A stretch of DNA of 64,000 nt from Escherichia coli (GTDB lineage: Bacteria > Pseudomonadota > Gammaproteobacteria > Enterobacterales > Enterobacteriaceae): assembly GCF_013122565.1 (NCBI RefSeq), contig NZ_CP053258.1; one strand, given 5' to 3'. Both the position numbers and the translations under genes were made by a program. The notes under the pieces are model-generated. The model did no database searches. It was given only the letters and a program-made list of their open reading frames with translations, and had not been told where the DNA came from. Shown in pieces: positions 1 through 38,808 of the stretch. Positions within the stretch are counted from its first letter, which is position 1; each line of letters begins with the position of its first letter.

Positions 1-713
1 CGCTCTCCTGTTCAGCCGATCGCAATATCAAAGCAAAAATTAACAAGCACGGTATCTGGCTGGAAAAACTCGAACACAATCCGGGGCAATATATTCCAGC
101 CTCACTATGGGAAGAAAATCACGCGCAACATGTACAACTGGATCTAAACCGTCCGTTGCGTGACGTGATGCAGGATCTCGCCAGATTACCGGTAGGTACC
201 CGCGTGTCGTTAAGTGGTCCCATCGTAGTGGCGCGCGATATCGCCCACGCCAAAATAAAAGCGCGGCTGGATAGCGGCGAATCGATGCCGGAGTACCTGA
301 AGCATCATATTGTCTATTACGCTGGCCCGGCGAAAACACCGGAGAACATGGCCTGCGGTTCACTAGGTCCAACCACGGGCGGTCGAATGGACGGTTATGT
401 CGATACCTTCCAGGCTGCTGGCGGCAGTCTGGTGATGTTATCGAAAGGTAACCGCAGCCAGCAGGTCACCGATGCCTGTCACAAACATGGTGGCTTCAAT
501 CTGGGAAGTATTGGCGGTGCAGCTGCGTTACTGGCGCAAGAATATGTCAAAAGTCTGCGTTGCCTGGAATACCCGGAGCTGGGTATGGAAGCGGTGTGGA
601 TGATGGAAGTGGAAAATCTGCCCGCATTCATCCTGGTAGATGATAAAGGCAATAATTTCTTTAGTCAGTTTGAGCAGCAACACCGCTGCGCCAGTTGCCC
701 TGCGGGACATTAA
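1..713 (+). CDS. Class I (Fe-S) fumarate hydratase, FumA/FumB-family paralog; 3' portion only, 5' end lies outside the window
   Basis: Frame 3 is open from position 3 to the stop at 711-713. The translation ([31 protein letters not shown] ... [12 protein letters not shown] ... ELGMEAVW ... [12 protein letters not shown]) matches the hinge and C-terminal domain of FumA/FumB as I recall them. The ORF track shows only the TTG-initiated tail 156..713. Confidence 0.8.
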
Positions 714-722
714 GGAAAATGA

Positions 723-1325
723 ATGGAAGCGCGAATTTCAACTGAACGGCATGTGCAGCGCCAGCAGAAATTGAAGGAACAGGTCGATACGCGCGTCGCG
801 GCGGCGATAGAGAAAAAAGGGATCTTGATTGTTTTCACCGGCAATGGCAAAGGGAAATCCACTGCCGCGTTTGGTACGGTGACGCGCGCGGTGGGTCATG
901 GCAAAACGGTGGGGGTTGCGCAGTACATCAAGGGGCAATGGGACAACGGCGAATACAACCTTCTCCAGCCGCTCGGGGTTGAGTTTCATATTATGGGAAC
1001 CGGTTTTACCTGGGAGACACAGAACCGGCAAGCGGATATCGACGCGGCGAAAGAGGTCTGGTCGGAAAGCAAACGGATGCTGGCTGACAAGCGTTACGAC
1101 TTAGTGGTGCTTGATGAGCTGACCTATATGCTGGCTTACCATTATCTGGATACCGAAGAAGTGATCGCTTCTCTGCAAAACCGCCCGGCACAACAAAGTG
1201 TCATTGTCACCGGACGCGGTTGCCACAGTCAGATATTAAAAATGGCGGATACGGTCAGCGAAATCCGCCCCGTCAAACATGCTTTTGATAACGGCATTCA
1301 GGCCCAGCCGGGTATCGACTGGTAA
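723..1325 (+). CDS. Cob(I)yrinic acid a,c-diamide / cob(I)alamin adenosyltransferase family protein (BtuR/CobO-like paralog)
   Basis: 200 aa with P-loop GNGKGKSTAAFG and strong similarity to E. coli BtuR as recalled (VFTGNGKGK, GFTWETQNR, VVLDELTYM, TGRGC, VSE-RPVKHAFD). AAGGA Shine-Dalgarno sits 6 nt upstream of the ATG and 9 bp after the fumarase stop. Confidence 0.8.
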   Translation: MEARISTERHVQRQQKLKEQVDTRVAAAIEKKGILIVFTGNGKGKSTAAFGTVTRAVGHGKTVGVAQYIKGQWDNGEYNLLQPLGVEFHIMGTGFTWETQNRQADIDAAKEVWSESKRMLADKRYDLVVLDELTYMLAYHYLDTEEVIASLQNRPAQQSVIVTGRGCHSQILKMADTVSEIRPVKHAFDNGIQAQPGIDW

Positions 1326-1328
1326 TAA

Positions 1329-1360
1329 CTGCGCCTGGCATCCCGCCAGGCGCAGGTTTT
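1329..1360. terminator. Bidirectional intrinsic terminator between the convergent CobO-like and LysR genes
   Basis: Perfect 11-bp inverted repeat CTGCGCCTGGC-atccc-GCCAGGCGCAG followed by GTTTT on the + strand and flanked by an A/T run for the opposite strand. Confidence 0.5.
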
Positions 1361-2264
1361 ACATCTCCTGCGGTACGACCGATTTCGCCAGCAACCATTC
1401 ACGAAATTGCTGCAAGTGCGGCGAGTCAGACTTCTCTTCCTGCCACGTCATAATAAAACGATTACCGGTACGAATAGGCACATCACAGGGAATCACCATA
1501 TCGCCACTATCCAAATCATGTTGAATAGCGAACCGTGGTAACAGCGCCACGCCGAGATTAGAGCGCACGGCGGCAATCAACATTGAAAGCAAATCGAAAC
1601 GTGGCCCGTTGTTGACCAGCGGACTGCTAACGCCAGATAAAGCAAACCACTCTTCCCAGCCAGTAATACGGGTGCTTTGATGCAGAAGTGGTAACTCAGT
1701 AAGCAGTTCTGCCACTGACAGTTTTTGATCGGACATTGCAAGCAAACTGCCGCTGCATACCGGCAAAATCTCCTCTTCAAAGAGATATTCTACTTCCGCC
1801 CAGGGCGCGCAAAAATTTTCGCGCATAATGACAGCATCGTACTCCCGATTAAGAAAATCGCCGTTATTAGCTAAAGAATGAATATTAACAATAATATCGG
1901 GATGTAACTTTGTGAATTCATGTAAATTTGGGATTAACCAGTGGGTACTAAAAGTAGGATTAACGGCAAGTTCAATAACCTGAACCGTAGGCTGCCAGGT
2001 CATAATGGTATTGGTATCGCGTTCCAGCTTATTTAATGTTTCTTTTACTATCCCCAGGTAATACTTCCCTGCATCATTAAGAAAAATACGTTTTTTAGAG
2101 TGTGAAAATAACGGAGTACGTAAAAATTCCTCCAGCGCACTTACTTGTCTGAATACTGCACTTTGGGTTAACGCTAACTCCTCTGCCGCTCTGGTATAAC
2201 TTTCATGACGTGCGACGACCTCAAAAGTCACCAGCAGTTCCGTTTTAGGTATTTTTCCTCGCAT
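1359..2264 (-). CDS. LysR-family transcriptional regulator
   Basis: N-terminal HTH region (LVTFEVVARHESYTRAAEELALTQSAVFRQVSALEEFL) and LysR-type substrate-binding C-terminus. Start chosen at MRGKIPKTELL (2264) rather than the longer track ORF starting at 2294. Confidence 0.8.
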   Translation of the reverse strand: MRGKIPKTELLVTFEVVARHESYTRAAEELALTQSAVFRQVSALEEFLRTPLFSHSKKRIFLNDAGKYYLGIVKETLNKLERDTNTIMTWQPTVQVIELAVNPTFSTHWLIPNLHEFTKLHPDIIVNIHSLANNGDFLNREYDAVIMRENFCAPWAEVEYLFEEEILPVCSGSLLAMSDQKLSVAELLTELPLLHQSTRITGWEEWFALSGVSSPLVNNGPRFDLLSMLIAAVRSNLGVALLPRFAIQHDLDSGDMVIPCDVPIRTGNRFIMTWQEEKSDSPHLQQFREWLLAKSVVPQEM

Positions 2265-2854
2265 AATGCCTTCCGTGAAAAAATAACAATTCAAAAAATT
2301 ATTTTATAAAAAACAGTAGCGCTAATGAATATCATAATTCAAATAAACAAACCAGTCAGCTATATGTCTAACCAGGAAAATAAAGTGACAATAATCCTAA
2401 AACAGGAATTTCACCTCAGTTATCCGCATGCAATGCTTTAAAGCCATTATTGCAAGAATATTATTCATATACATGAATATACTCTAAATAAGTCGAGTTG
2501 GAGGAAGGGAACAAATAATGAATTTCCAGAAGCTTACATAAGTAAGTGACCTGGGTGAGCGAACATCGATGCAGCACATGCAACTTGAATTATGACAAGT
2601 ATACAATGATAAATTTAGATACCCTATGTTATATATTATCTATGTCCGGTTAAATTGAATGAGTCATGGCCTTCAAAGACATCGCAAAAGATAATTTCTC
2701 TTTAACAATAAGCCAGATTTACCACTTGTAAAAATTGCTATCGCCACATACACTACGCGCGTTTTCTTTCCCTTTTGCTGGCTGCTGACCGGAAAGACAA
2801 AATTACCCTCGCAATACAGGGGGTTGTTTAACGTCTATATTTCAGGACAGCGTT

Positions 2855-4252
2855 ATGCATCATCTTTCAAGGCTTGATAAAGCCTTTCTGCGCAAAGGGA
2901 TCCAACTTTCCCGCGCCAACAATATTGTTTCATTATCTCGTCCATCAGGTGTCAGTGCCCGCGTACTGCTGCCAGACGAACTGCCGCTGGAAGAAAAAGC
3001 AGTAACACAACTGCTTGATTTTGCAGAAGTGAAGCTACCAGACCACCCAGGTTATGTACGCCAGACGTGTGCGACGCCAGATTTTCATCCCGGCAATGGC
3101 GTCCCCGTTGGCGCGGTGGTAGCCTCAACGCCGGATTTAGTCATTCCCGCCGCCATCGGCACCGATATTTCTTGTGGCATGCGGCTGCTGACGACCGGAA
3201 TAACACTTGAGCAAGCCGAAGCGCATAAAGACGTCATCACTCAGCGGTTAACGCAAGTGTTACTGCAAAATGAGCGCGATGTTCCGTTATCTGCACGAGC
3301 GTTCACCGCGCTTTTTGATGGCGGGCCGGCAGATTGCATGTCGGCCTTGCCATCAGCAGGTCTCTGGACACGCACGAATATCCCCCGAATGGTACAAGAG
3401 ATTGACCGCTGCATTGGGCTGAACGAGCATAAAAGTCATTCGCGTTATGCCCCACCCGCCCTGCTGGCAACGGACCGCGCATTACTCCGCGACCCTTGTC
3501 TGGGTACGCCGGGTTCAGGTAATCATTTTATTGAACTTCAGGTAGTTGATAGCGTGATCGATCGCCATGTAGCCTGGCAACAAGGGCTGAAAACAGGCGA
3601 TATCGTGGTGATGATCCATAGTGGATCGCGAGATGTCGGCTTTTACGTCGGACGACGCTGGACGGACCGTGCCCGCGCAGACTGGCCCGCTGGGCATAAA
3701 CATCCACAAAGCGGGTTATATGGTCTGGCTGGTGGACTGGCGGAGGAATATCTACAAGCGATGGGAATGGCGGCGCGTTACGCATGGTTAAATCGCGTGA
3801 CCATTACGGAAATGGTGCGCGTATGTTTTGCCGATTTATTCCATCAGGATGAATCACATCTGGTGGTGGATGTGCCGCATAACATCATCCTTCGCGAGCA
3901 TGAGATGAATATTCATCGCAAAGGCGCAACACCGGCACGTGCGGGCGATCTGGCGTTAATCCCCGGTTCAATGGGCGATTATTCGTGGCTTGCGGTAGGT
4001 TGCGGCAACCCGGAGTGGTTGTGGTCATGCAGTCACGGAGCAGGACGCAGCCAGCGTCGGCAGGCCATGCGCGCACACGCGACTGAAGAGTCAACGCTGC
4101 CGTGGCAATGCGTAACACTGCGTGAAGAACGGCGTATTGAGGAAGCGCCAGCTGCTTATAAAGATATTGGTCCGGTTATCGAAGCCCAACAAGAAGCTGG
4201 ATTAATTCAGCCAGCGGTCAGATTTCGACCGTGGTTAACGTTTAAGGCATAA
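2855..4252 (+). CDS. RtcB-family RNA ligase paralog (orphan)
   Basis: 465 aa with the RtcB signature motifs DISCGMR, GSGNHFIE, HSGSR, HN...HRKGA, IPGSMG and SHGAGR. Stop codon is immediately followed by the sucD 3' terminator palindrome. Confidence 0.8.
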   Translation: MHHLSRLDKAFLRKGIQLSRANNIVSLSRPSGVSARVLLPDELPLEEKAVTQLLDFAEVKLPDHPGYVRQTCATPDFHPGNGVPVGAVVASTPDLVIPAAIGTDISCGMRLLTTGITLEQAEAHKDVITQRLTQVLLQNERDVPLSARAFTALFDGGPADCMSALPSAGLWTRTNIPRMVQEIDRCIGLNEHKSHSRYAPPALLATDRALLRDPCLGTPGSGNHFIELQVVDSVIDRHVAWQQGLKTGDIVVMIHSGSRDVGFYVGRRWTDRARADWPAGHKHPQSGLYGLAGGLAEEYLQAMGMAARYAWLNRVTITEMVRVCFADLFHQDESHLVVDVPHNIILREHEMNIHRKGATPARAGDLALIPGSMGDYSWLAVGCGNPEWLWSCSHGAGRSQRRQAMRAHATEESTLPWQCVTLREERRIEEAPAAYKDIGPVIEAQQEAGLIQPAVRFRPWLTFKA

Positions 4253-4349
4253 AAAAGGCCATCATACGATGGCCAACCATGTCGAAACCGACAGCCCTTC
4301 GCCATTCCTGTAGAGGGAAGCGGCGAGGGCTATTTCTTATTACAGATAT
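4253..4349 (-). ncRNA. sdhX: sucD 3'UTR-derived sRNA (SdhX/RybD-like) with intrinsic terminator
   Basis: Minus-strand region directly after the sucD stop ends in hairpin GGCCATCGTATGATGGCC followed by TTTTTT (4253-4276 on +). Position and terminator match the SdhX sRNA as I recall it; exact 5' end not determinable. Confidence 0.5.
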
Positions 4350-5219
4350 TTATTTCAGAACAGTTTTCAGTGCTTCACCGATATCCGCCAGGCTGCGAAC
4401 GGTTTTCACGCCTGCGGCTTCCAGAGCCGCGAATTTCTCATCCGCAGTCCCTTTCCCACCGGCAATGATGGCACCTGCGTGGCCCATACGTTTGCCTTTC
4501 GGCGCAGTCACACCAGCGATGTAACCTACAACTGGCTTGGTAACGTGCTCTTTGATGTACGCTGCTGCTTCTTCTTCAGCGCTACCGCCGATCTCACCGA
4601 TCATCACGATCGCTTCGGTCTGCGGATCTTTTTCGAACATTTCGAGGATGTCGATAAAGTTAGAGCCAGGGATCGGGTCACCGCCGATACCAACACAGGT
4701 CGACTGACCGAAACCGTAATCCGTGGTCTGTTTAACCGCTTCATAGGTCAGTGTACCGGAACGGGAAACGATACCCACTTTACCCGGTTTGTGAATGTGA
4801 CCAGGCTGGATACCGATTTTGCATTCACCTGGGGTGATAACGCCCGGGCAGTTCGGGCCGATCATACGAACGCCGGCTTCATCCAGTTTCACTTTCACAG
4901 TCAGCATATCCAGCGTCGGGATGCCTTCAGTGATGGTGATAATCAGTTTGATGCCTGCGTCGATGGCTTCCAGAATGGAGTCTTTGCAGAACGGTGCTGG
5001 TACGTAGATAACAGAAGCGGTAGCGCCAGTGGCAGCAACGGCTTCACGCACGGTGTTGAACACCGGCAGGCCGAGGTGGGTGGTGCCGCCTTTACCTGGG
5101 GTTACGCCGCCAACCATTTTAGTGCCGTATGCAATAGCCTGTTCTGAGTGGAAAGTCCCCTGGCTACCGGTAAAACCCTGGCAGATAACCTTGGTGTTTT
5201 TATCAATTAAAATGGACAT
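4350..5219 (-). CDS. sucD: Succinyl-CoA synthetase alpha subunit
   Basis: 289 aa, [27 protein letters not shown]..., CoA-binding and phosphohistidine motifs; start overlaps the sucC stop. Confidence 0.97.
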
Positions 5220-6385
5220 TATTTCCCCTCCACTGCGGCAACAACCTGCTGAGCTGCATCCGTCAGACCTTTTGCTGCAATAATATTCAGGCCGCTGTCA
5301 GCCAGTTTCTTCGCGCCGAGTTCGGCGTTGTTACCTTCCAGACGTACCACGACCGGTACGTTAACACCCACTTCCGCTACCGCGCCGATGATACCGTCAG
5401 CGATCAGGTCGCAACGAACGATACCGCCGAAGATGTTAACCAGAACGGCTTTCACTTTGTCGTCAGAGAGGATGATTTTGAACGCTTCGGTTACACGTTC
5501 TTTGGTTGCGCCGCCGCCAACGTCCAGGAAGTTAGCCGGTTCGCCGCCGTGCAGTTTAACGATGTCCATCGTACCCATCGCCAGACCTGCGCCGTTAACC
5601 ATACAACCGATGTTACCGTCCAGCGCAACGTAGTTCAGTTCCCACTGTGCAGCTTGTGCTTCACGTGGATCTTCCTGCGACTGGTCACGCATTTCGCGCA
5701 GATCAGGCTGGCGGAACAGTGCGTTGCCATCAGCGCCCAGTTTGCCGTCGAGGCAAATCAGATCGCCCTGTTTGGTAATGACCAGCGGGTTGATTTCGAT
5801 CAGCGCCAGGTCACGCTCCAGGAAAATGGTCGCCAGGCCCATGAAGATTTTGGTGAACTGCTGAACCAGTTTACCTTCCAGACCAAGTTTGAACGCCAGC
5901 TCGCGTCCCTGATACGGCATCGGGCCAGTCAGCGGATCAAGCGCAACTTTATGGATCAGGTGCGGAGTTTCTTCCGCCACTTTTTCGATTTCCACGCCGC
6001 CTTCGGTGGAGGCCATAAAGACCACGCGACGTGAACTACGGTCTACAACGGCACCGAGATACAGCTCTTTAGCGATATCGGTCGCCGCTTCAACCAGAAT
6101 CTGGTTAACCGGTTGGCCATTGGCATCTGTTTGATACGTTACCAGACGCTTGCCCAGCCAGTTTTCTGCAAAAGCACGGATGTCTTCTTTGCTGTTTACA
6201 ACTTTCACACCGCCCGCTTTACCGCGGCCACCAGCGTGAACCTGACATTTCACTACCCACGGACCGGCACCGATTTTTGAAGCGGCTTCTTCTGCTTCGC
6301 GCGGAGTAGTACAGGCATAACCCACCGGTGCTGGTAAGCCATAGCGGGCAAAAAGTTGTTTTGCCTGATATTCATGTAAGTTCAT
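5219..6385 (-). CDS. sucC: Succinyl-CoA synthetase beta subunit
   Basis: 388 aa, [18 protein letters not shown]..., ATP-grasp domain. Confidence 0.97.
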
Positions 6386-6469
6386 GTGTTCTGTCCATCC
6401 TTCAGTAATCGTTATCTTTTAAACCGTAGACCGAATATTTCGTATCGCTTCCGGGTATTGTCGGTCACC

Positions 6470-6640
6470 CGTAGGCCTGATAAGACGCGTCAGCGTCGCA
6501 TCAGGCATCGCTTGTCGGATGCGGCGCGAGCGCCTTATCCGACCTACATCGGTGCTTCCCGTAGGCCTGATAAGACGCGTTAAGCGTCGCATCAGGCTTC
6601 AATGGCCGGAGAAGGCGATAATGCCTTATCCGGTCTACAG
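6470..6640. repeat. BIME / cluster of REP palindromes in the sucB-sucC intergenic region
   Basis: Several alternating-orientation REP units (GCCTGATGCGACGCT...CTTATCAGGCCTAC type, and GCCGGATGCGGCG...CTTATCCGACCTAC). Confidence 0.85.
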
Positions 6641-6660
6641 TGCAGGTGAAGCTTAAACTA

Positions 6661-7878
6661 CTACACGTCCAGCAGCAGACGCGTCGGATCTTCCAGCAAC
6701 TCTTTGATCGTTACCAGGAAGCCCACGGATTCGCGACCATCGATCAGACGGTGATCGTAGGACAGCGCCAGGTACATCATCGGCAGGATCTCAACCTGAC
6801 CATTCACCGCCATCGGACGATCTTTGATAGCGTGCATACCCAGAATTGCGCTCTGCGGCGGGTTGATGATCGGCGTAGACATCAGGGAACCGAACACACC
6901 ACCGTTGGTGATAGTGAAGTTACCACCGGTCAGATCTTCAACGGTCAGCTTGCCGTCACGGCCTTTGACTGCCAGCTCTTTGATTTTCTTCTCGATGTCT
7001 GCCATGCCGAGGGTATCGACATCACGCAGTACCGGCGTCACCAGGCCGCGCGGCGTAGAAACCGCCATGCTGACGTCGAAATAGTTGTGGTAAACCACAT
7101 CATCGCCGTCGATAGAAGCATTCACTTCCGGGTAACGTTTCAGGGCTTCAACCACCGCTTTCACGTAGAAGGACATAAAGCCCAGACGGATGCCGTGACG
7201 TTTTTCAAACGCTTCACCGTACTGCTTACGCAGATCCATAATCGGCTTCATGTTGACTTCGTTGAACGTGGTCAGCATGGCGGTGGAGTTTTTCGCTTCC
7301 AGCAGACGCTCTGCCACACGCTTACGCAGGCGAGTCATCGGGACACGTTTTTCGCTACGTGCAGCCAGAGCCGGTTGCGCCGCCGGAGCAGCCGCTGCCG
7401 GAGCAGACTCTTTCGCCGGGGCTTTCGCCAGATGTTTTTCCACATCTTCACGAGTCAGACGACCACCCACACCGGTGCCTTTAATGGCGCTGGCGTCGAG
7501 ATTGTGTTCAGCCAGCAGGCGACGGATCGCCGGGCTTAACGCATCGTTGTTTTGCTCTTCCAGAGACGCCTGCTGGCGTTGCGCCGGAGTGGACGCTTTC
7601 TCTTCAGATTTGGCGCTGGTTTCTTTACCGGCGCTGTTGCCTTCACGCAGGCGACCAAGGATCTGACGAGACGTTACCGTTGTACCTTCATCTTCCAGAA
7701 CCGCATCCAGAATGCCGTCTGCTGATGCCGGTACTTCCAGTACCACTTTGTCAGTTTCGATTTCTACCAGCACTTCATCACGTACGACTGCGTCGCCGGG
7801 TTTTTTATGCCAGGTTGCGACGGTGGCATCGGCTACGGATTCAGGCAGGTCAGGGACCAGAATATCTACGCTACTCAT
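6661..7878 (-). CDS. sucB: 2-oxoglutarate dehydrogenase E2 (dihydrolipoyllysine succinyltransferase)
   Basis: 405 aa, lipoyl domain ([14 protein letters not shown]), Ala/Pro-rich linker, catalytic DHRLIDG motif. Confidence 0.97.
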
Positions 7879-7892
7879 TGTGTATCCTTTAT

Positions 7893-10694
7893 TTATTCGA
7901 CGTTCAGCGCGTCATTAACCAGATCTTGTTGCTGTTTCTGGTGAACGGACATATACCCTACCGCCGGAGAGGCGGAGGCCGGGCGGCCTGCATAACGCAG
8001 AGAAGCCCCAAACGGAATCACTTCACGGAAATGATGCTGGCTGCAGTACCATGCGCCCTGGTTGAGCGGCTCTTCCTGGCACCAGACAAAATCCTTGACG
8101 TGAGCAAACTGCTGCAACACTTCCTGCATCGCTTTATGCGGGAACGGGTAGAGTTGCTCGATACGCACAATGGCGACATCGTGTTGATTGTTCTTACGAC
8201 GCTGTTCCAGCAGGTCGTAATAAACCTTACCAGAACACATCACTACGCGCTTCACGCCCTTCGGATCAAGCTCGTCGATTTCACCGATGGCTGGCAGGAA
8301 GGTGCCGTTCGCCAGTTCTTCGAGGCTGGAAACCGCCAGCGGATGACGCAGCAGGGATTTCGGCGACATCACGACCAGCGGACGACGCATCCCGCGCAGC
8401 GCCTGACGACGCAGCATGTGGTAAACCTGTGCCGGGGTAGACGGTACGCACACCTGCATGTTTTGCTCAGCGCAAAGTTGCAGATAACGTTCCAGACGCG
8501 CGGAGGAGTGCTCCGGCCCCTGCCCTTCGTAACCGTGTGGCAGCAACATCACCAGGCCACACATCCGGCCCCATTTCTGTTCGCCAGAGGAGATGAACTG
8601 GTCGATAACCACCTGAGCACCGTTAGCGAAGTCACCGAACTGCGCTTCCCAGATGGTCAGAGTGCGTGGTTCTGCGGTGGCATAACCGTATTCAAACGCC
8701 AGCACGGCTTCTTCAGACAGTACGGAGTCCCAGACACGGAACGCGCCCTGGCCGTTATGGATGTGTTGCAGCGGCGTGTAAGTGGAACCGTTAGACTGGT
8801 TGTGGATCACCGCGTGGCGGTGGAAGAAGGTACCGCGACCGGAGTCTTCACCCGACAGGCGAACCGGAATGCCTTCGTCAACCAGCGTGGCGTAAGCGAG
8901 GTTTTCCGCGCCGCCCCAGTCGAACAGTTTCTCACCGGCTGCCATCGCCTGGCGATCGCCATAAATCTTGGCAACGCGAGACTGCATTTCAACTGCTTCC
9001 GGCACCGTGCTGATGCGTTTAGCCAGTTCCTGCAGGCGCTTCATCTCAACTTTGTTCGGGTACTCTTCGTCCCATTCGTGGTTGAGGTACGGCGACCAGG
9101 TGAAGGAGTGCATGTTCATCGGACGCCACTCTGCTACCACGCAATCGCCAGCATCCAGCGCATCGCGGTACAGGTTAACCATCTCGGTGGCATCTTCCAG
9201 CGTCGCGACTTTTTCCTGCTCCAGCTTGTCTGCGTAGATTTTGCGCGGCGTTGGATGTTTTTTGATTTTCTGATACATCAGCGGCTGGGTTGCGCTCGGC
9301 TCGTCGGCTTCGTTGTGGCCGTGACGGCGGTAGCACACCAGGTCGATGAAGACATCACGTTTAAAGGTGTTACGGAAATCGAGCGCCAGACGGGTCACAA
9401 AGGCAACGGCTTCCGGATCATCCGCGTTAACGTGGAAAATCGGTGCCTGAACCATCTTACCGATATCAGTACAGTACGGCGTCGAACGTGCATCCAGCGG
9501 ATTAGAGGTGGTGAAGCCAACCTGGTTGTTGATAACGATACGTACCGTACCGCCAACTTCATAACCACGCGCTTTCGACATGTTCAGGGTTTCCTGAACC
9601 ACGCCCTGCCCGGTCACTGCGGCGTCACCGTGGATGGTGATTGGCAGCACTTTGTTGCTGCTCGGCTCATCGAGTCTGTCCAGACGGGCACGAACAGAAC
9701 CGATAACGACCGGGCTGACAATCTCAAGGTGAGACGGGTTAAACGCCAGCGCCAGGTGCACCAGGCCGCCATCGGTCTGGAAGTCAGACGAGAAGCCCAT
9801 GTGGTATTTCACGTCGCCTGTGCCGAGGTGTTCTTTATGTTTACCGGCAAACTCGTCGAACAAGTCTTGCGGTTTTTTACCCAGCACGTTCACCAGCACG
9901 TTCAGACGACCACGGTGCGCCATCCCGAGAACCACTTCGCGGGTGCCGCTGTTGCCCGCGTGGCGGATCATCTCTTTAAGCATCGGGATTAACGCGTCAC
10001 CGCCTTCCAGCGAGAAGCGTTTTGCGCCAGGGAATTTTGCGCCGAGGTAACGTTCAAGGCCTTCAGCGGCGGTCAGTTCGCTTAAGAAGCGTTTTTTCTC
10101 TTCGCTATTGAAAGTCGCGCGACCAGACTCGATACGCTGTTGGATCCAGCGTTTTTCTTCGGTGCTGGTAATGTGCATATACTCGGCGCCAATCGGGCCG
10201 CAGTAGGTTTGCTTCAGGGCTTCCAGCAGTTCACCGAGTTTCATGGTTTCTTTGCCGCTGGCAAATGAACCGACGTTGAAGGTCTCCTGGAAGTCTGCTT
10301 CGGTCAGATCGTGGAAAGACGGATCCAGATCGGCCACTTTATCTTGCTGCCACAGTCCCAGCGGATCGAGATTCGCATGCTGGTGACCACGGAAGCGGTA
10401 TGCGTTAATGAGCTGCAGGACTTTAACCTGCTTCACATTGGTGTCAGGGTCGGAGATCGTTGAAGAGTAACGTGAAGCGTCTTTCGCCAGGCGGCGGAAA
10501 TATTCACGCGTTTGAGAGTGGAATTGATCCGGTTTGACTCCCGTACCAGGTAACTGCTGGAACGTCGAACGCCAGTTAGCGTCAACCGAGTCAGGATCGG
10601 TTAAGAAGTCTTCATAGAGCTGTTCTATCCAGCTCTGGTTTGCGCCAGAGAGGTAAGAAGAGTCCAACCAGGCTTTCAAAGCGCTGTTCTGCAT
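7893..10694 (-). CDS. sucA: 2-oxoglutarate dehydrogenase E1 component
   Basis: 933 aa, [34 protein letters not shown]...; thiamine-diphosphate enzyme. Confidence 0.97.
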
Positions 10695-10873
10695 CGTGAT
10701 CCCTTAAGCATCTTTTTTATGCTTACTTCGCCGTGGATACTACCACGCACAGTGATGTGCGTGCCGGGGTTCACTTGCGAGCTCTTGTCTACGTAGTGGC
10801 TCGCGAAGGAACCTTTAAAAACTGTCTTAGTGTCAGGGGCAGTTTTTAAAGATTTCCTGCATTTCTTTGTTAC

Positions 10874-10992
10874 GCCTGATGCGCTGCGCTTATCAGGCCT
10901 ACGGGTAATGACGTGTAGGCCGGATAAGGCGTTCACGCCGCATCCGGCACTGGTTGCCTGATAAGACGCTTGAGCGTCTTATCAGGCCTACG
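10874..10992. repeat. REP cluster in the sdhB-sucA intergenic region
   Basis: Three REP units including two copies of CTTATCAGGCCTAC (10892-10902 and 10981-10991 contain ATCAGGCCTAC). Confidence 0.85.
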
Positions 10993-10994
10993 GT

Positions 10995-11711
10995 TTACGC
11001 ATTACGTTGCAACAACATCGACTTGATATGACCGATGGCGCGCGTCGGGTTCAGCCCCTTCGGACATACACTGACGCAGTTCATGATGCTGTGACAGCGG
11101 AATACACTGAATGCATCGCTCAAACCGTCGAGGCGGCTGTCAGTCTCGGTATCACGGCTATCGATCAGGAAACGATATGCCGCTAACAAGCCTGCCGGGC
11201 CGATAAACTTATCGGGATTCCACCAGAAAGACGGACAAGAGGTTGAACAACATGCGCAGAGAATACATTCATACAGCCCGTCGAGTTTTTCGCGCTGCTC
11301 TGGCATCTGTAAATGCTCGCGAGCTGGCGGATTTTGTTCATTATTCAACAGGTAAGGCTTAATTTTCTCATATTGCGCATAGAATTGTCCCATGTCTACC
11401 ACCAAATCGCGGATCACCGGTAAACCTGGCAGAGGGCGAATCACAATCTTCTTGCCCGGCTGGTTGAGTGCCGAAATTGGGGTAATACAGGCCAGACCAT
11501 TCTTGCCGTTCATGTTCAGACCGTCGGAACCGCACACACCTTCACGACAGGAGCGACGGAACGACAGGCTGGGATCTTTCTCTTTCAGCTGGATAAGCGC
11601 ATCCAGCAGCATCATGTCACGACCTTCTTCCGCTTCCAGGGTGTAATCCTGCATACGCGGAGCATCATCAACATCCGGGTTATAGCGATAAATTGAAAAC
11701 TCGAGTCTCAT
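10995..11711 (-). CDS. sdhB: Succinate dehydrogenase iron-sulfur subunit
   Basis: 238 aa, Cys clusters for the 2Fe-2S, 4Fe-4S and 3Fe-4S centres. Confidence 0.97.
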   Translation of the reverse strand: MRLEFSIYRYNPDVDDAPRMQDYTLEAEEGRDMMLLDALIQLKEKDPSLSFRRSCREGVCGSDGLNMNGKNGLACITPISALNQPGKKIVIRPLPGLPVIRDLVVDMGQFYAQYEKIKPYLLNNEQNPPAREHLQMPEQREKLDGLYECILCACCSTSCPSFWWNPDKFIGPAGLLAAYRFLIDSRDTETDSRLDGLSDAFSVFRCHSIMNCVSVCPKGLNPTRAIGHIKSMLLQRNA

Positions 11712-11726
11712 TTTCCTGTCTCCGCA

Positions 11727-13493
11727 TTAGTAAGTACGAATCTTCGGCGGGAATGCCGGACGCAGTTTCGGTTCCATGTTGACGCTTCGGCGCGTCATGG
11801 ATTCCGACTCTGGCAGATACAGGGAGTGGCACAGCCAGTTTTCATCATCACGATCCGGGAAGTCGAAGCGGCTATGCGCGCCACGGCTTTCGGTACGGAA
11901 GTTGGCAGAAACAGCCGTTGCATACGCCGTTTCCATCAGGTTATCCAGTTCCAGGCACTCAACGCGCTGGGTGTTGAACTCGCTGGAAGTGTCATCCAGA
12001 CGGGCATTTTTCAGACGCTCGCGGATAACTTTCAACTGCTCAAGCCCTTTCGCCATCGCATCACCTTCACGGAAGACCGAGAAGTTATGCTGCATACATT
12101 CTTGCAGCGCTTTACGAATCGCCACCGGATCTTCACCGTTACGATTATTGTTCCAGCGGTTCAGACGATCCAGAGATGCTTCAACATCAGACTCGCTGGC
12201 ATCGCGCAATGCGCCCTGCTCGGCGATAGACTCTTGCAGATGCAGACCCGCTGCGCGACCAAAGACCACCAGGTCCAGCAGCGAGTTGCCGCCCAGACGG
12301 TTAGCACCGTGTACCGATACGCAGGCAATTTCACCTACCGCGAACAGCCCCGGAACAACCACATCTTCGCCTTTCTCATTCACAGTCAGCGCCTGACCGG
12401 TAACTTTGGTCGGAATACCGCCCATCATGTAGTGACAGGTTGGGATAACCGGAATCGGCTCTTTCACCGGATCAACGTGAGCAAAGGTACGGGAAAGCTC
12501 CAGGATACCCGGCAGACGGGATTCGAGAACTTCTTTACCCAGGTGATCGAGTTTCAGTTTCGCGTGTGGCCCCCACGGACCATCACAGCCGCGACCTTCA
12601 CGGATTTCAATCATGATGGAACGCGCCACCACATCACGGCCCGCCAGGTCTTTGGCGTTCGGCGCATAACGCTCCATAAAGCGTTCGCCATGTTTGTTCA
12701 GCAGATAACCGCCTTCACCACGGCAACCTTCGGTGACCAGTACGCCCGCACCGGCAATGCCGGTCGGGTGGAATTGCCACATTTCCATATCCTGCACCGG
12801 TACGCCTGCGCGGATAGCCATGCCGACACCGTCACCGGTGTTAATGTGGGCGTTAGTGGTGGACTGATAAATACGCCCTGCCCCGCCAGTCGCCAGCACG
12901 GTAGCGCGGGCTTTGAAATAAACCACTTCACCGGTTTCGATGCACAGTGCGGTACAACCCACCACCGCGCCATCCTGGTTTTTCACCAGATCCAGCGCAT
13001 ACCACTCGGAGAAAATGGTGGTGTGGTTTTTCAGGTTCTGCTGATAAAGCGTGTGCAACAGTGCGTGACCGGTACGGTCAGCCGCTGCCGCAGTGCGTGC
13101 CGCCTGCTCGCCGCCGAAGTTTTTCGACTGACCGCCAAACGGACGTTGATAGATACGACCATCATCGAGACGCGAGAACGGCAGGCCCATGTGTTCCAGT
13201 TCCAGAATCGCTTCCGGCCCGGTTTTACACATATATTCAATCGCGTCCTGGTCACCGATATAGTCCGACCCTTTCACGGTGTCGTACATATGCCATTCCC
13301 AGTTATCTTCATGGGTATTACCCAGCGCAACGGTAATGCCGCCTTGCGCAGAAACGGTATGGGAACGGGTCGGGAAGACTTTAGAGAGCAGCGCACAGGT
13401 CTGGCCGCTCTGGGAAATTTGCAGCGCCGCGCGCATACCTGCGCCGCCGGCACCAATCACAACTGCATCAAATTCTCTGACTGGCAATTTCAT
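11727..13493 (-). CDS. sdhA: Succinate dehydrogenase flavoprotein subunit
   Basis: Start trimmed to [24 protein letters not shown] (FAD-binding GxGxxG); 588 aa. Confidence 0.97.
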
Positions 13494-13840
13494 CACACAC
13501 CCCACACCACAACGAATCCATAAATCACGTAAACCACCAGTGCAACGACAATCACCAGTTGCAGCATCAGGCGCAAAGCCAGCGGTTTAACGTAGTCGGT
13601 CAACACCTGCCACATGCCGATCCAGGCATGGATCAAGATAGAAAACAGCGCCAGCAGGGTGAACACTTTGGTGAACGCAGAGGCGAAGAAACCGATCCAG
13701 ACTTCATATGTCAGTTCGCCACTGGTGGCGAAAAAACCGACCATATAAATGATGTAGAGCGTCAGGACGATAGCGGTAGCGCGAACGAGGATGAAATCAT
13801 GTACGCCATTGCGTCCTAATGCGGAGGCGTTGCTTACCAT
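13493..13840 (-). CDS. sdhD: Succinate dehydrogenase membrane anchor subunit
   Basis: 115 aa hydrophobic protein, [21 protein letters not shown]... Confidence 0.95.
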
Positions 13841-14223
13841 ACGAGGACTCCTGCGAGAAGTGAAAGCACGACAGTAATAACAAAGGAGATTTTGGCGGAG
13901 CGTTTACCCGCTTCGAATGTTTCTTCCAGATAGCCAAAATCCATCATCATGTGGCGAATACCTACGACGACGTGATACGCCAGAGCGGTAAGGATGCCCC
14001 ACATGATAAATTTGACGAAGAAGCTGCCCATAATCGCGGAAGCTTGCTCGAAACCTTCAGGGGAAGAGAGGCTGGTACCCAGAAGCCACAGCAGGATGCC
14101 CACAGCAACAAAGGTGATCACACCGGAAACGCGATGGAGAATGGACGCTATCGCCGTGATGGGGAACCGGATGGTCTGTAGGTCCAGATTAACAGGTCTT
14201 TGTTTTTTCACATTTCTTATCAT
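13834..14223 (-). CDS. sdhC: Succinate dehydrogenase cytochrome b556 subunit
   Basis: Start trimmed to [34 protein letters not shown] (129 aa). Confidence 0.95.
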
Positions 14224-30299: not shown

Positions 30300-30400
30300 T
30301 ACTGCTCCTGAACGGTTTACAGGAGTAAGTGTAGACGGCGAAAAGAAAAAAACCGCCAGCGTTTCCACTAGCGGTTTTCAATGTATTCAAAACTCAGCAA

Positions 30401-38011: not shown

Positions 38012-38685
38012 CAAACGTTCTGATTGTTGAAGATGAACAGGCTATTCGTCGCTTTCTGCGCACGGCGCTGGAGGGCGACGGTATGCGCGTCTTTGAGGCC
38101 GAAACGCTGCAACGCGGCTTGCTGGAAGCGGCAACCCGTAAGCCAGATTTGATTATTCTCGATCTCGGCCTGCCCGACGGTGATGGGATTGAGTTTATCC
38201 GCGACCTGCGCCAGTGGAGCGCGGTGCCGGTGATTGTGCTTTCCGCACGCAGCGAAGAGAGCGACAAAATCGCCGCGCTGGATGCCGGAGCGGATGATTA
38301 TCTGAGTAAGCCGTTTGGCATTGGCGAATTGCAGGCCCGTCTGCGCGTCGCATTACGCCGCCACTCTGCCACCACCGCGCCCGATCCGCTGGTGAAATTT
38401 TCCGATGTTACCGTCGATTTAGCCGCCCGCGTGATCCATCGCGGTGAGGAAGAGGTGCATCTCACCCCGATTGAGTTTCGCCTGCTGGCAGTGCTGCTCA
38501 ACAACGCCGGAAAAGTACTCACCCAGCGCCAGTTACTCAATCAGGTGTGGGGGCCAAACGCGGTCGAACACAGTCACTATTTGCGTATTTATATGGGACA
38601 TCTGCGACAAAAACTGGAACAGGATCCCACTCGCCCCCGCCATTTCATTACTGAAACCGGTATTGGGTATCGGTTTATGCTTTGA
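38008..38685 (+). CDS. kdpE: Response regulator KdpE (OmpR family)
   Basis: 225 aa; receiver domain (ILDLGLPDGDG) and winged-helix output; 4-bp overlap with kdpD. Confidence 0.97.
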   Translation: MTNVLIVEDEQAIRRFLRTALEGDGMRVFEAETLQRGLLEAATRKPDLIILDLGLPDGDGIEFIRDLRQWSAVPVIVLSARSEESDKIAALDAGADDYLSKPFGIGELQARLRVALRRHSATTAPDPLVKFSDVTVDLAARVIHRGEEEVHLTPIEFRLLAVLLNNAGKVLTQRQLLNQVWGPNAVEHSHYLRIYMGHLRQKLEQDPTRPRHFITETGIGYRFML

Positions 38686-38808
38686 AAAAAGTGGCAATGT
38701 ATGGATAAAGTCATTTTTTATTCAAATATAAGGAACTTAATATTTAAAAAATGTTCCATACAATTCCTCATCATAAATGACACCGTAGCACACAAGGAGC
38801 AAGTAGCG

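Follow-up and report, generated by a model that had tools for sequence, protein, structure and literature searches.

The closest described relative of the DNA considered here is the accessory methylaspartate-pathway ('glutamate fermentation') cluster of Escherichia coli O157:H7 Sakai, in which the ECs0757 product was characterised, with kinetics, as FumD, an enzyme that prefers mesaconate over fumarate (Kronen & Berg 2015, PLoS One, PMC4682846). The cluster, with CobA and a LysR-type transcriptional regulator (LTTR) adjoining fumD, was reported from 26.5% of E. coli strains and from other Enterobacteriaceae, including E. fergusonii (PMC4682846); RtcB has 0 occurrences in that article. A second described element is SdhX (RybD; Miyakoshi et al. 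2019, PMC6393394), the small RNA (sRNA) of sdhCDAB-sucABCD, for which a seed sequence and a Rho-independent terminator have been reported. The RtcB systems studied in E. coli are RtcB1 (rtcBA) and RtcB2 (rtcB2-prfH, ribosome repair) (PMC5175333; PMC9304027, PMC9223846). The window, i.e., the whole stretch of 64,000 nt analysed here (E. coli assembly GCF_013122565.1, contig NZ_CP053258.1), opens inside fumD, continues with cobO, lysR and a gene for a further RtcB paralog, and then reaches the SdhX region of sucD. We put the probability at roughly 0.88 that the cydA-sucD interval is a long-standing variable region, reworked by deletions and, via its core flanks, by homologous recombination rather than by a self-mobile island, the window showing the tail of the methylaspartate cluster and a separate rtcB in a strain that lacks mngBAR.

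Comparison of annotated loci separated the DNA between cydA and sucD into six arrangements, A-F. Form A, that of K-12, reads cydA-mngBAR-sucD. In form B, found in LHM10-1 (L002), the methylaspartate cluster with its regulator (hereafter the island), rtcB and mngBAR occur together, and in form C, shared by the window and 2017-02-2CC, the island is followed by an rtcB that abuts sucD. Form F, represented by strain E20 (L006), is like C except that hutU, a permease gene, hutD, hutI, hutG and an ammonia-lyase gene separate lysR from rtcB; O157:H7 strain 4276 (L003, form D) has lysR, about 670 bp and then sucD, and form E (L005) has a truncated lysR followed by sucD. There are, then, at least six cydA-sucD arrangements, all ending at the sucD/SdhX terminator, and the initial annotation of this DNA was right to see an insertion-deletion hotspot at a terminator. 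Its description of the block as standing in place of mngR-mngAB has to be given up, since block and mngBAR are adjacent in LHM10-1, the only genome with a separated rtcB that was examined. Nor do the four genes behave as one unit: of the 1,121 genomes with the island only some 300 carry rtcB, and the spacer in front of it is itself a swap site. The island and mngBAR are independent presence/absence modules, and the interval as a whole is pieced together from at least five modules, each present or absent independently (glm to fumD-cobO-lysR, hut, rtcB, mngBAR and the spacer alleles) with its right edge pinned at the SdhX terminator. Because SdhX and sucD are conserved beyond it, the terminator forms a fixed right-hand limit. 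This modular make-up is a modest step past the literature as far as it is searchable and leaves current understanding unchanged. The fumD-cobO-LTTR block is already known and annotated in RefSeq, sits at a known variable site, and in the window represents a real but ordinary strain-to-strain difference.

To quantify these forms, megablast was run against 5,426 complete E. coli genomes from RefSeq, with annotated regions. The K-12-type mngR|sucD junction was found in 3,882 of them (71.5%), and in these K-12-type genomes mngR-mngA-mngB are indeed the neighbours of sucD, as had been expected from K-12; in the pangenome it is this junction, and not the form of the window, that is the majority state. 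The fumD-cobO pair was detected in 1,121 genomes (20.7%), about 820 of which lack an intact rtcB. An rtcB|sucD junction occurs in 156 genomes (2.9%), while the rtcB 3' end and the untranslated region (UTR) of sucD were matched at separate places in about 144. The AT-rich spacer of the window (2283-2746) is present in 150 genomes and an 8.6-kb hut cassette takes its position in 145. The exact form of the window, with the AT-rich spacer, an intact rtcB on the terminator and neither hut nor mng, was found in about 20 genomes, the count being that of the 20 top-ranked single-piece full-length matches. Across all 5,426 genomes, this rtcB was seen only at the cydA-sucD locus.

K-12 mngBAR sequence is absent from the entire 64-kb window, and because this genome lacks mngR-mngA-mngB, rtcB ends right on the sucD/SdhX intrinsic terminator (4251..4274, minus strand; stem 4257-4263/4268-4274, U-tract 4251-4256). 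The placement of a terminator palindrome at 4253-4276, immediately after the RtcB stop, was essentially correct: the stem spans 4257-4274, and the TAA stop (4250-4252) overlaps the tract of six U by two bases. The sucD 3' UTR, i.e., the SdhX region (4251..4349, minus strand), is intact. It is 98% identical to that of K-12, folds with z = -4.39, and carries the seed UUCGACAUGGU at 4276-4286 on the minus strand, with the GC-rich hairpin and U-tract directly downstream of sucD. Compared with the published SdhX, seed, stem and U-tract are all present, and only the DNA just past the U-tract differs, the sRNA itself being unchanged. A permissive-threshold Rfam search of 1-7000 returned no match in the block or in the sucD 3' UTR, and only elements of the repetitive extragenic palindromic (REP)/naRNA4 type at 6474-6635. 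In both K-12 and the window, a convergent gene ends only a few bases from the A/U-tract of this terminator, and SdhX is intact; in K-12 the mngR stop is 4 nt from the tract instead of overlapping it, whereas in the window the convergent gene is rtcB and the mannosylglycerate phosphotransferase system/hydrolase module is missing.

Alignment with the B-type and K-12 ends places the change from rtcB to sequence of the mngR-sucD-spacer type at 4246..4250. The window ends in ...gtttaaGGCATAAaaaaggcc, the B-type locus L002 in ...gtttaaTGGGTAActgaaatg and K-12 mngR in ...cgcgaTAAgcacaaaaaaggcc; the junction supplies the stop and the two rtcB codons before it (K, A), and the protein terminates in FKA* or FNG* according to the form. 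Form B reads tttaatgggtaactgaaatg... and then runs into the spacer before mngB. The 'tttaaggcat' of the window is shared by L006 and the O157 locus L003, L001 has 'tttaaagcat', one base different, and L005 matches window 4209-4400 at 99%. Given this near-identical junction in forms C, F and D, the rtcB|terminator junction appears to have arisen once, and a junction of single origin would now be common to about 3% of E. coli. The mngR end of K-12 reads gaTAAgcacaaaaaaggcc, which would fit a deletion from one 'taa' triplet to another. In a contig of Escherichia sp. MOD1-EC7003, a cryptic lineage, rtcB adjoins mngB, and this adjacency hints that the right side of the B-type is old.

Sequence comparison assigns the fumarase of the window to FumD, a class I fumarase/mesaconase, and the block to the tail of the published methylaspartate-pathway cluster. 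The 3' part of the gene (711 nt, C-terminal 236 aa; 1..713, plus strand, frame open from 3) scored 541 bits against NF011921 (class I fumarate hydratase; model positions 315-550 of 550), was weaker on the FumA model (376 bits) and NF011920 (370 bits), and is 98.3% identical in nucleotides to the O157:H7 gene. It scores as a fourth class I fumarase, of the FumD type and distinct from FumA and FumB; the earlier label was 'FumA-like fumarase'. The cobO (cobA) gene for cob(I)yrinic acid a,c-diamide adenosyltransferase (723..1325, plus strand) scores above the cut-offs of both TIGR00708 (246.6 against 167.75 bits) and NF004637 (295.6 against 185 bits). The GcvA-like LTTR gene lysR (1359..2264, minus strand) reaches 221 bits on NF008352, under the cut-off of 288; its open reading frame (ORF) extends upstream as far as a TTG at 2294, and its RefSeq homologues are 906 nt long. 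The order fumD, cobO, LTTR gene is the one shown in Fig 5 of PMC4682846, nucleotide identity to the Sakai ECs0757 cluster is 98-99%, and the chromosomal site is the same. Unlike the window, which has an intact rtcB and another AT-rich spacer, O157:H7 retains nothing but pieces of rtcB and the hut ammonia-lyase gene between lysR and sucD.

In five related E. coli loci, read from cydA to sucD, two hypothetical genes, glmS-glmL-glmE and a methylaspartate ammonia-lyase gene come first, followed by an atuA-like gene, a DUF4387 gene, a dicarboxylate/amino-acid symporter gene, fumD, cobO, lysR, a variable part and sucD. The annotation of related loci describes glmL together with glmS-glmE as glutamate mutase and its reactivase. 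In the route that such a cluster would encode, the B12-dependent glutamate mutase GlmS/GlmE, with GlmL, would turn glutamate into methylaspartate, methylaspartate ammonia-lyase would convert this to mesaconate, and FumD would hydrate mesaconate to (S)-citramalate; the cobO product may supply adenosylcobalamin to the mutase, and the LysR-type gene would be the putative regulator of the cluster. For annotation, the value lies in renaming a 'FumA-like' gene as fumD (mesaconase) and the block as the tail of a methylaspartate-pathway cluster.

The rtcB gene (2855..4252, plus strand) encodes a stand-alone RtcB paralog of 465 aa, an archaeal/eukaryal-type length, in which PF01139 covers residues 63-464 (model positions 7-425 of 426, E = 1.9e-95, Pfam). 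Residues D104, C107, H224, H255, H342 and H394 are identical in the aligned 1UC2 and 2EPG chains and stand where Pyrococcus horikoshii RtcB has its metal ligands and GMP-accepting histidine (D95, C98, H203, H234, H329 and H404). With RtcB1 (rtcBA, RtcR/sigma-54), RtcB2 (prfH) and the P. horikoshii enzyme (PDB 1UC2/4DWQ) the paralog thus shares the full-length PF01139 domain and the metal/GMP residues. It differs from RtcB1 and RtcB2 in lacking rtcA, rtcR and prfH neighbours and in falling under all NCBIfam equivalog cut-offs: NF007153 gave 201.6 bits against 407 and TIGR03073 164.7 against 271.8, both covering only residues ~213-464 (TIGR03073: 213-459). The neighbours of the window rtcB are lysR and sucD; no rtcA, rtcR or prfH stands beside it, and neither rtcA nor rtcR is annotated in the related loci. 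The protein belongs to a large subfamily of RtcB proteins of 460-470 aa, and the proteins with a source name at 60-68% identity come from Burkholderiales, other Betaproteobacteria and Pseudomonas, its closest relatives in Burkholderiales and Pseudomonas being stand-alone as well. Six distant loci (Acidovorax, Massilia, Gilliamella, Saezia, Snodgrassella and Undibacterium) have no conserved partner beside rtcB: rtcA, rtcR, prfH, LysR, hut, glm and a recurrent tRNA were all missing there, with a tRNA-Ser near the Acidovorax homologue only.

Because some 820 island genomes do without rtcB and the distant homologues lack conserved neighbours, rtcB is read as an independent module, and we treat it as a separate passenger, gained and lost independently of the cluster, and as a new member of a known family. 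The gene is under purifying selection, with dN/dS near 0.13. When E. coli-type alleles were compared in pairs, nine of the ten pairs gave values of 0.12-0.17 and one gave 0.25, and the reading frame is intact in all alleles compared. About 300 E. coli genomes carry an intact, selectively kept RtcB paralog outside the characterised systems, which is a testable lead. The window allele is a fine-scale mosaic that is 3-6% off every allele compared, a pattern that rules out its being a simple recombinant of B-type and hut-type alleles.

Between lysR and rtcB lies an AT-rich intergenic region of 590 bp (2265..2854, GC 0.346). Its right part, 2747-2854, is conserved across all the rtcB contexts examined and is presumably where the promoter and leader of rtcB lie; folding of 2747-2870 is unremarkable (z = -1.84). 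The variable spacer allele at 2283-2746 (GC 0.317) is swapped between genomes and is one of at least three alternatives, the others being the hut cassette and the spacer of L008. Over its left ~200 nt it shows ~62% similarity to the lysR-proximal intergenic DNA found in the other types, hut-type genomes included. Tblastn found no hut coding remnants in it (best E = 1.3), promoter-like sites showed no excess (5, against a shuffled mean of 5.1), Rfam returned no riboswitch or sRNA match, and its ORFs are short only; we read the spacer as fast-diverging regulatory or junk sequence. The third lysR-rtcB variant, in L008 1-1680 (Escherichia sp. MOD1-EC7003), has a lysR truncated after ~160 codons and an rtcB followed by mngB; its AT-rich spacer of ~950 bp contains pieces like both hut-flanking intergenic regions and looks like a clean hut deletion.

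In strain E20, L006 17921-26563 replaces window 2283-2746 and carries hutU, a cytosine-permease-like gene, hutD, hutI, hutG and a HAL/hutH-like gene. In O157:H7, the unannotated lysR-sucD spacer (L003 16283-16930) contains the hut-type lysR-proximal intergenic region together with two fragments of the HAL gene and two of rtcB, the latter corresponding to window 3979-4035 and 4209-4252 in pairwise BLAST. Judging by this composition, form D is a decayed form F, produced via internal deletions, and form E a further deletion of D that reached lysR. The position of hut next to the glutamate-to-mesaconate genes in ~145 genomes implies a contiguous route from histidine over glutamate to citramalate. 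E. coli is usually regarded as lacking hut genes, and no paper on a hut cassette or on the cydA-sucD island in E. coli was found in the literature as far as it is searchable. For gut anaerobes, a 2026 preprint presents the combination of Hut and methylaspartate as an 'oxidative histidine pathway', with E. coli as the non-histidine-metabolizing control. The hut cassette beside the cluster is a further testable lead.

In pairwise comparisons, synonymous divergence (dS) is 0.14-0.21 for rtcB, 0.08-0.15 for sucD and 0-0.07 for fumD, cobO and lysR, and sucD shows zero non-synonymous differences against five other genomes. A metagenome-assembled genome (MAG) labelled 'Citrobacter sp.', HRGM_Genome_0066 (L007 1-16784), is 95-98% E. 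coli-like over lysR-hut-rtcB-sucD-sucC and ~89% identical over sucB-sucA, the switch in identity coinciding with the REP-containing sucB/sucC spacer. The pattern suggests that the island and sucDC may have been exchanged between species by homologous recombination.

Several points weigh against the proposed reshuffling through core flanks, or limit how far it reaches. K-12 and island-bearing DNA (L004 2600-3700 against L002) share only 85% identity upstream of cydA, and the 3' end of mngB only 76%; these values, far below the genome average, indicate that the K-12-type and island haplotypes are old and diverged around the interval, and with flanks so diverged no clean empty site is definable in K-12. 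The direction of change at the rtcB end is equally hard to read, the 3-nt 'taa' being too short to polarise a deletion of mngBAR from the island+rtcB+mngBAR form against its insertion into the rtcB|sucD form. The glmSLE and ammonia-lyase genes of this genome would lie left of the window, and we infer them from synteny in its relatives. As to function, Kronen & Berg detected neither expression of the cluster nor growth on glutamate and left the fate of citramalate open (PMC4682846), so the physiological pathway is unproven in E. coli. The RtcB paralog, finally, is a catalytically competent RNA ligase (3'-P/5'-OH, GTP/Mn-dependent) by prediction from its conserved residues.

Could the block instead be a recent self-mobile island, inserted at the sucD terminator and displacing mngR-mngAB? 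Such an event would accord with the 79% of E. coli genomes that lack the block, with the AT-rich lysR (GC 0.446) and spacer (0.346), and with the fact that the closest RtcB proteins outside Escherichia/Citrobacter come from Betaproteobacteria and Pseudomonas at 60-68% identity. Self-mobility is, however, largely refuted by the lack of an integrase, transposase, tRNA or flanking repeat: no tRNA occurs in 1-12000, no direct or inverted flanking repeats in 1-4500 beyond chance-level pairs and the cobO/lysR hairpin, and the annotation of the related loci L001-L006 lists neither an integrase nor a transposase, the left boundary in this genome lying outside the window. The composition argues the same way. 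With fumD, cobO and rtcB at 0.525-0.541, i.e., at background (window, 0.519), only lysR and the spacer are AT-rich; measured against the window, the enzyme genes are typical and the AT-richness of lysR and spacer holds, and the block is not deviant as a whole. None of the classical marks of an integrative genomic island (tRNA/att, integrase, repeats, deviant composition) was therefore found in the DNA covered. Displacement is contradicted by the co-occurrence of block and mngBAR in LHM10-1, and probably in most of the ~144 genomes in which rtcB and the sucD UTR lie apart, and recency by the deep allele divergence (rtcB dS 0.14-0.21), which speaks for long residence, and by the cryptic Escherichia lineage with rtcB beside mngB. 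We regard this scenario as very unlikely. A more serious, though still doubtful, alternative is that the island-bearing state, possibly with rtcB and mngBAR, is ancestral, K-12 and most strains being derived by loss and the window representing a partial loss. The forms can be ordered as a nested decay series, from hut with rtcB through the O157 remnants to the truncated lysR; the cluster is known from other Enterobacteriaceae, including E. fergusonii (PMC4682846); and the rtcB-mngB adjacency in MOD1-EC7003 as well as the deep allelic divergence are in line with an old complete form. Against general loss stand the K-12-type junction as the majority state (71.5%) and the 470 bp of unrelated sequence that K-12 carries at the island site, with no island remnants. 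The Citrobacter MAG, moreover, shows that recombination is able to bring this segment in, so that its patchy distribution fits gain equally well. We continue to favour reshuffling by both deletion and recombination via the core flanks.

The remaining alternatives concern rtcB and its junction. A functional place in the amino-acid catabolic cluster, for example under LysR control and needed for expression of the pathway, is brought to mind by the divergent arrangement of lysR and rtcB over a shared 590-bp region in the window form and by the confinement of rtcB to this locus in E. coli. It is nonetheless very unlikely, as ~820 of the 1,121 island genomes have no intact rtcB, as rtcB is divergent from hutU and not from lysR in hut-type genomes, and as no LysR, hut or glm gene accompanies rtcB in the distant homologue loci. 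More far-fetched still is the proposal that the paralog is a third, functionally distinct RNA-repair ligase of E. coli with a target of its own, combined with antisense read-through across the SdhX seed and sucD. On its plus-strand reading, the terminator hairpin has no T-run downstream, so rtcB transcription may continue antisense over both; if true, expression of an accessory rtcB would be coupled to SdhX control of acetate/tricarboxylic acid cycle metabolism in ~3% of strains. An assembly artefact or chimeric join at the rtcB-terminator abutment, to which nothing more than the abruptness of the junction points, can practically be dismissed: the junction recurs in 156 genomes that were finished independently and in one metagenome-assembled genome, which refutes it, and the rtcB frame is intact with a proper stop. 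What we retain is rtcB as a passenger module in a reshuffled cydA-sucD interval.

All four genes and the 590-bp AT-rich gap of the initial annotation were recovered, with ends unchanged or shifted by a few bases, and its left boundary does lie outside the window, position 1 falling ~940 nt inside a 1653-nt fumarase gene when compared with related loci. In the gap between the convergent cobO and lysR, a terminator scan found a GC-rich hairpin (1329..1355; 11-pair stem with 9 GC pairs; inverted repeat I2), which is likely the shared terminator of the two genes. The variable interval is bounded by the core gene sucD, at 4350..5219 on the minus strand (ORF list; related loci), and beyond sucD the ORF list of the window gives sucC, sucB, sucA and then the sdh genes. 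Farther along, the ~8.3-kb rhsC-ybfB-ybfC-ybfQ-ybfD segment (RhsC element), which lies between ybfA and ybgA in K-12, is missing at 30337-30347. At 38542-38686, the speFL-speF-potE genes of K-12 are missing; their K-12 flanks are kdpE and a partial winged-helix gene fragment, and the window segment aligns to both the kdpE end and the fragment, the pattern that an insertion of speF-potE with a duplication would leave. The sdh-suc core at 4350-14000 has a best identity of 98.8% among the complete genomes and the block one of 97.6%, no close relative being found there. Elements of the REP/bacterial interspersed mosaic element type (Rfam naRNA4) lie at 6474-6635 and 10918-10988, in the sucB-sucC and sdhB-sucA spacers, and the length of the sucB-sucC spacer ranges from 93 to 274 bp among the loci examined.

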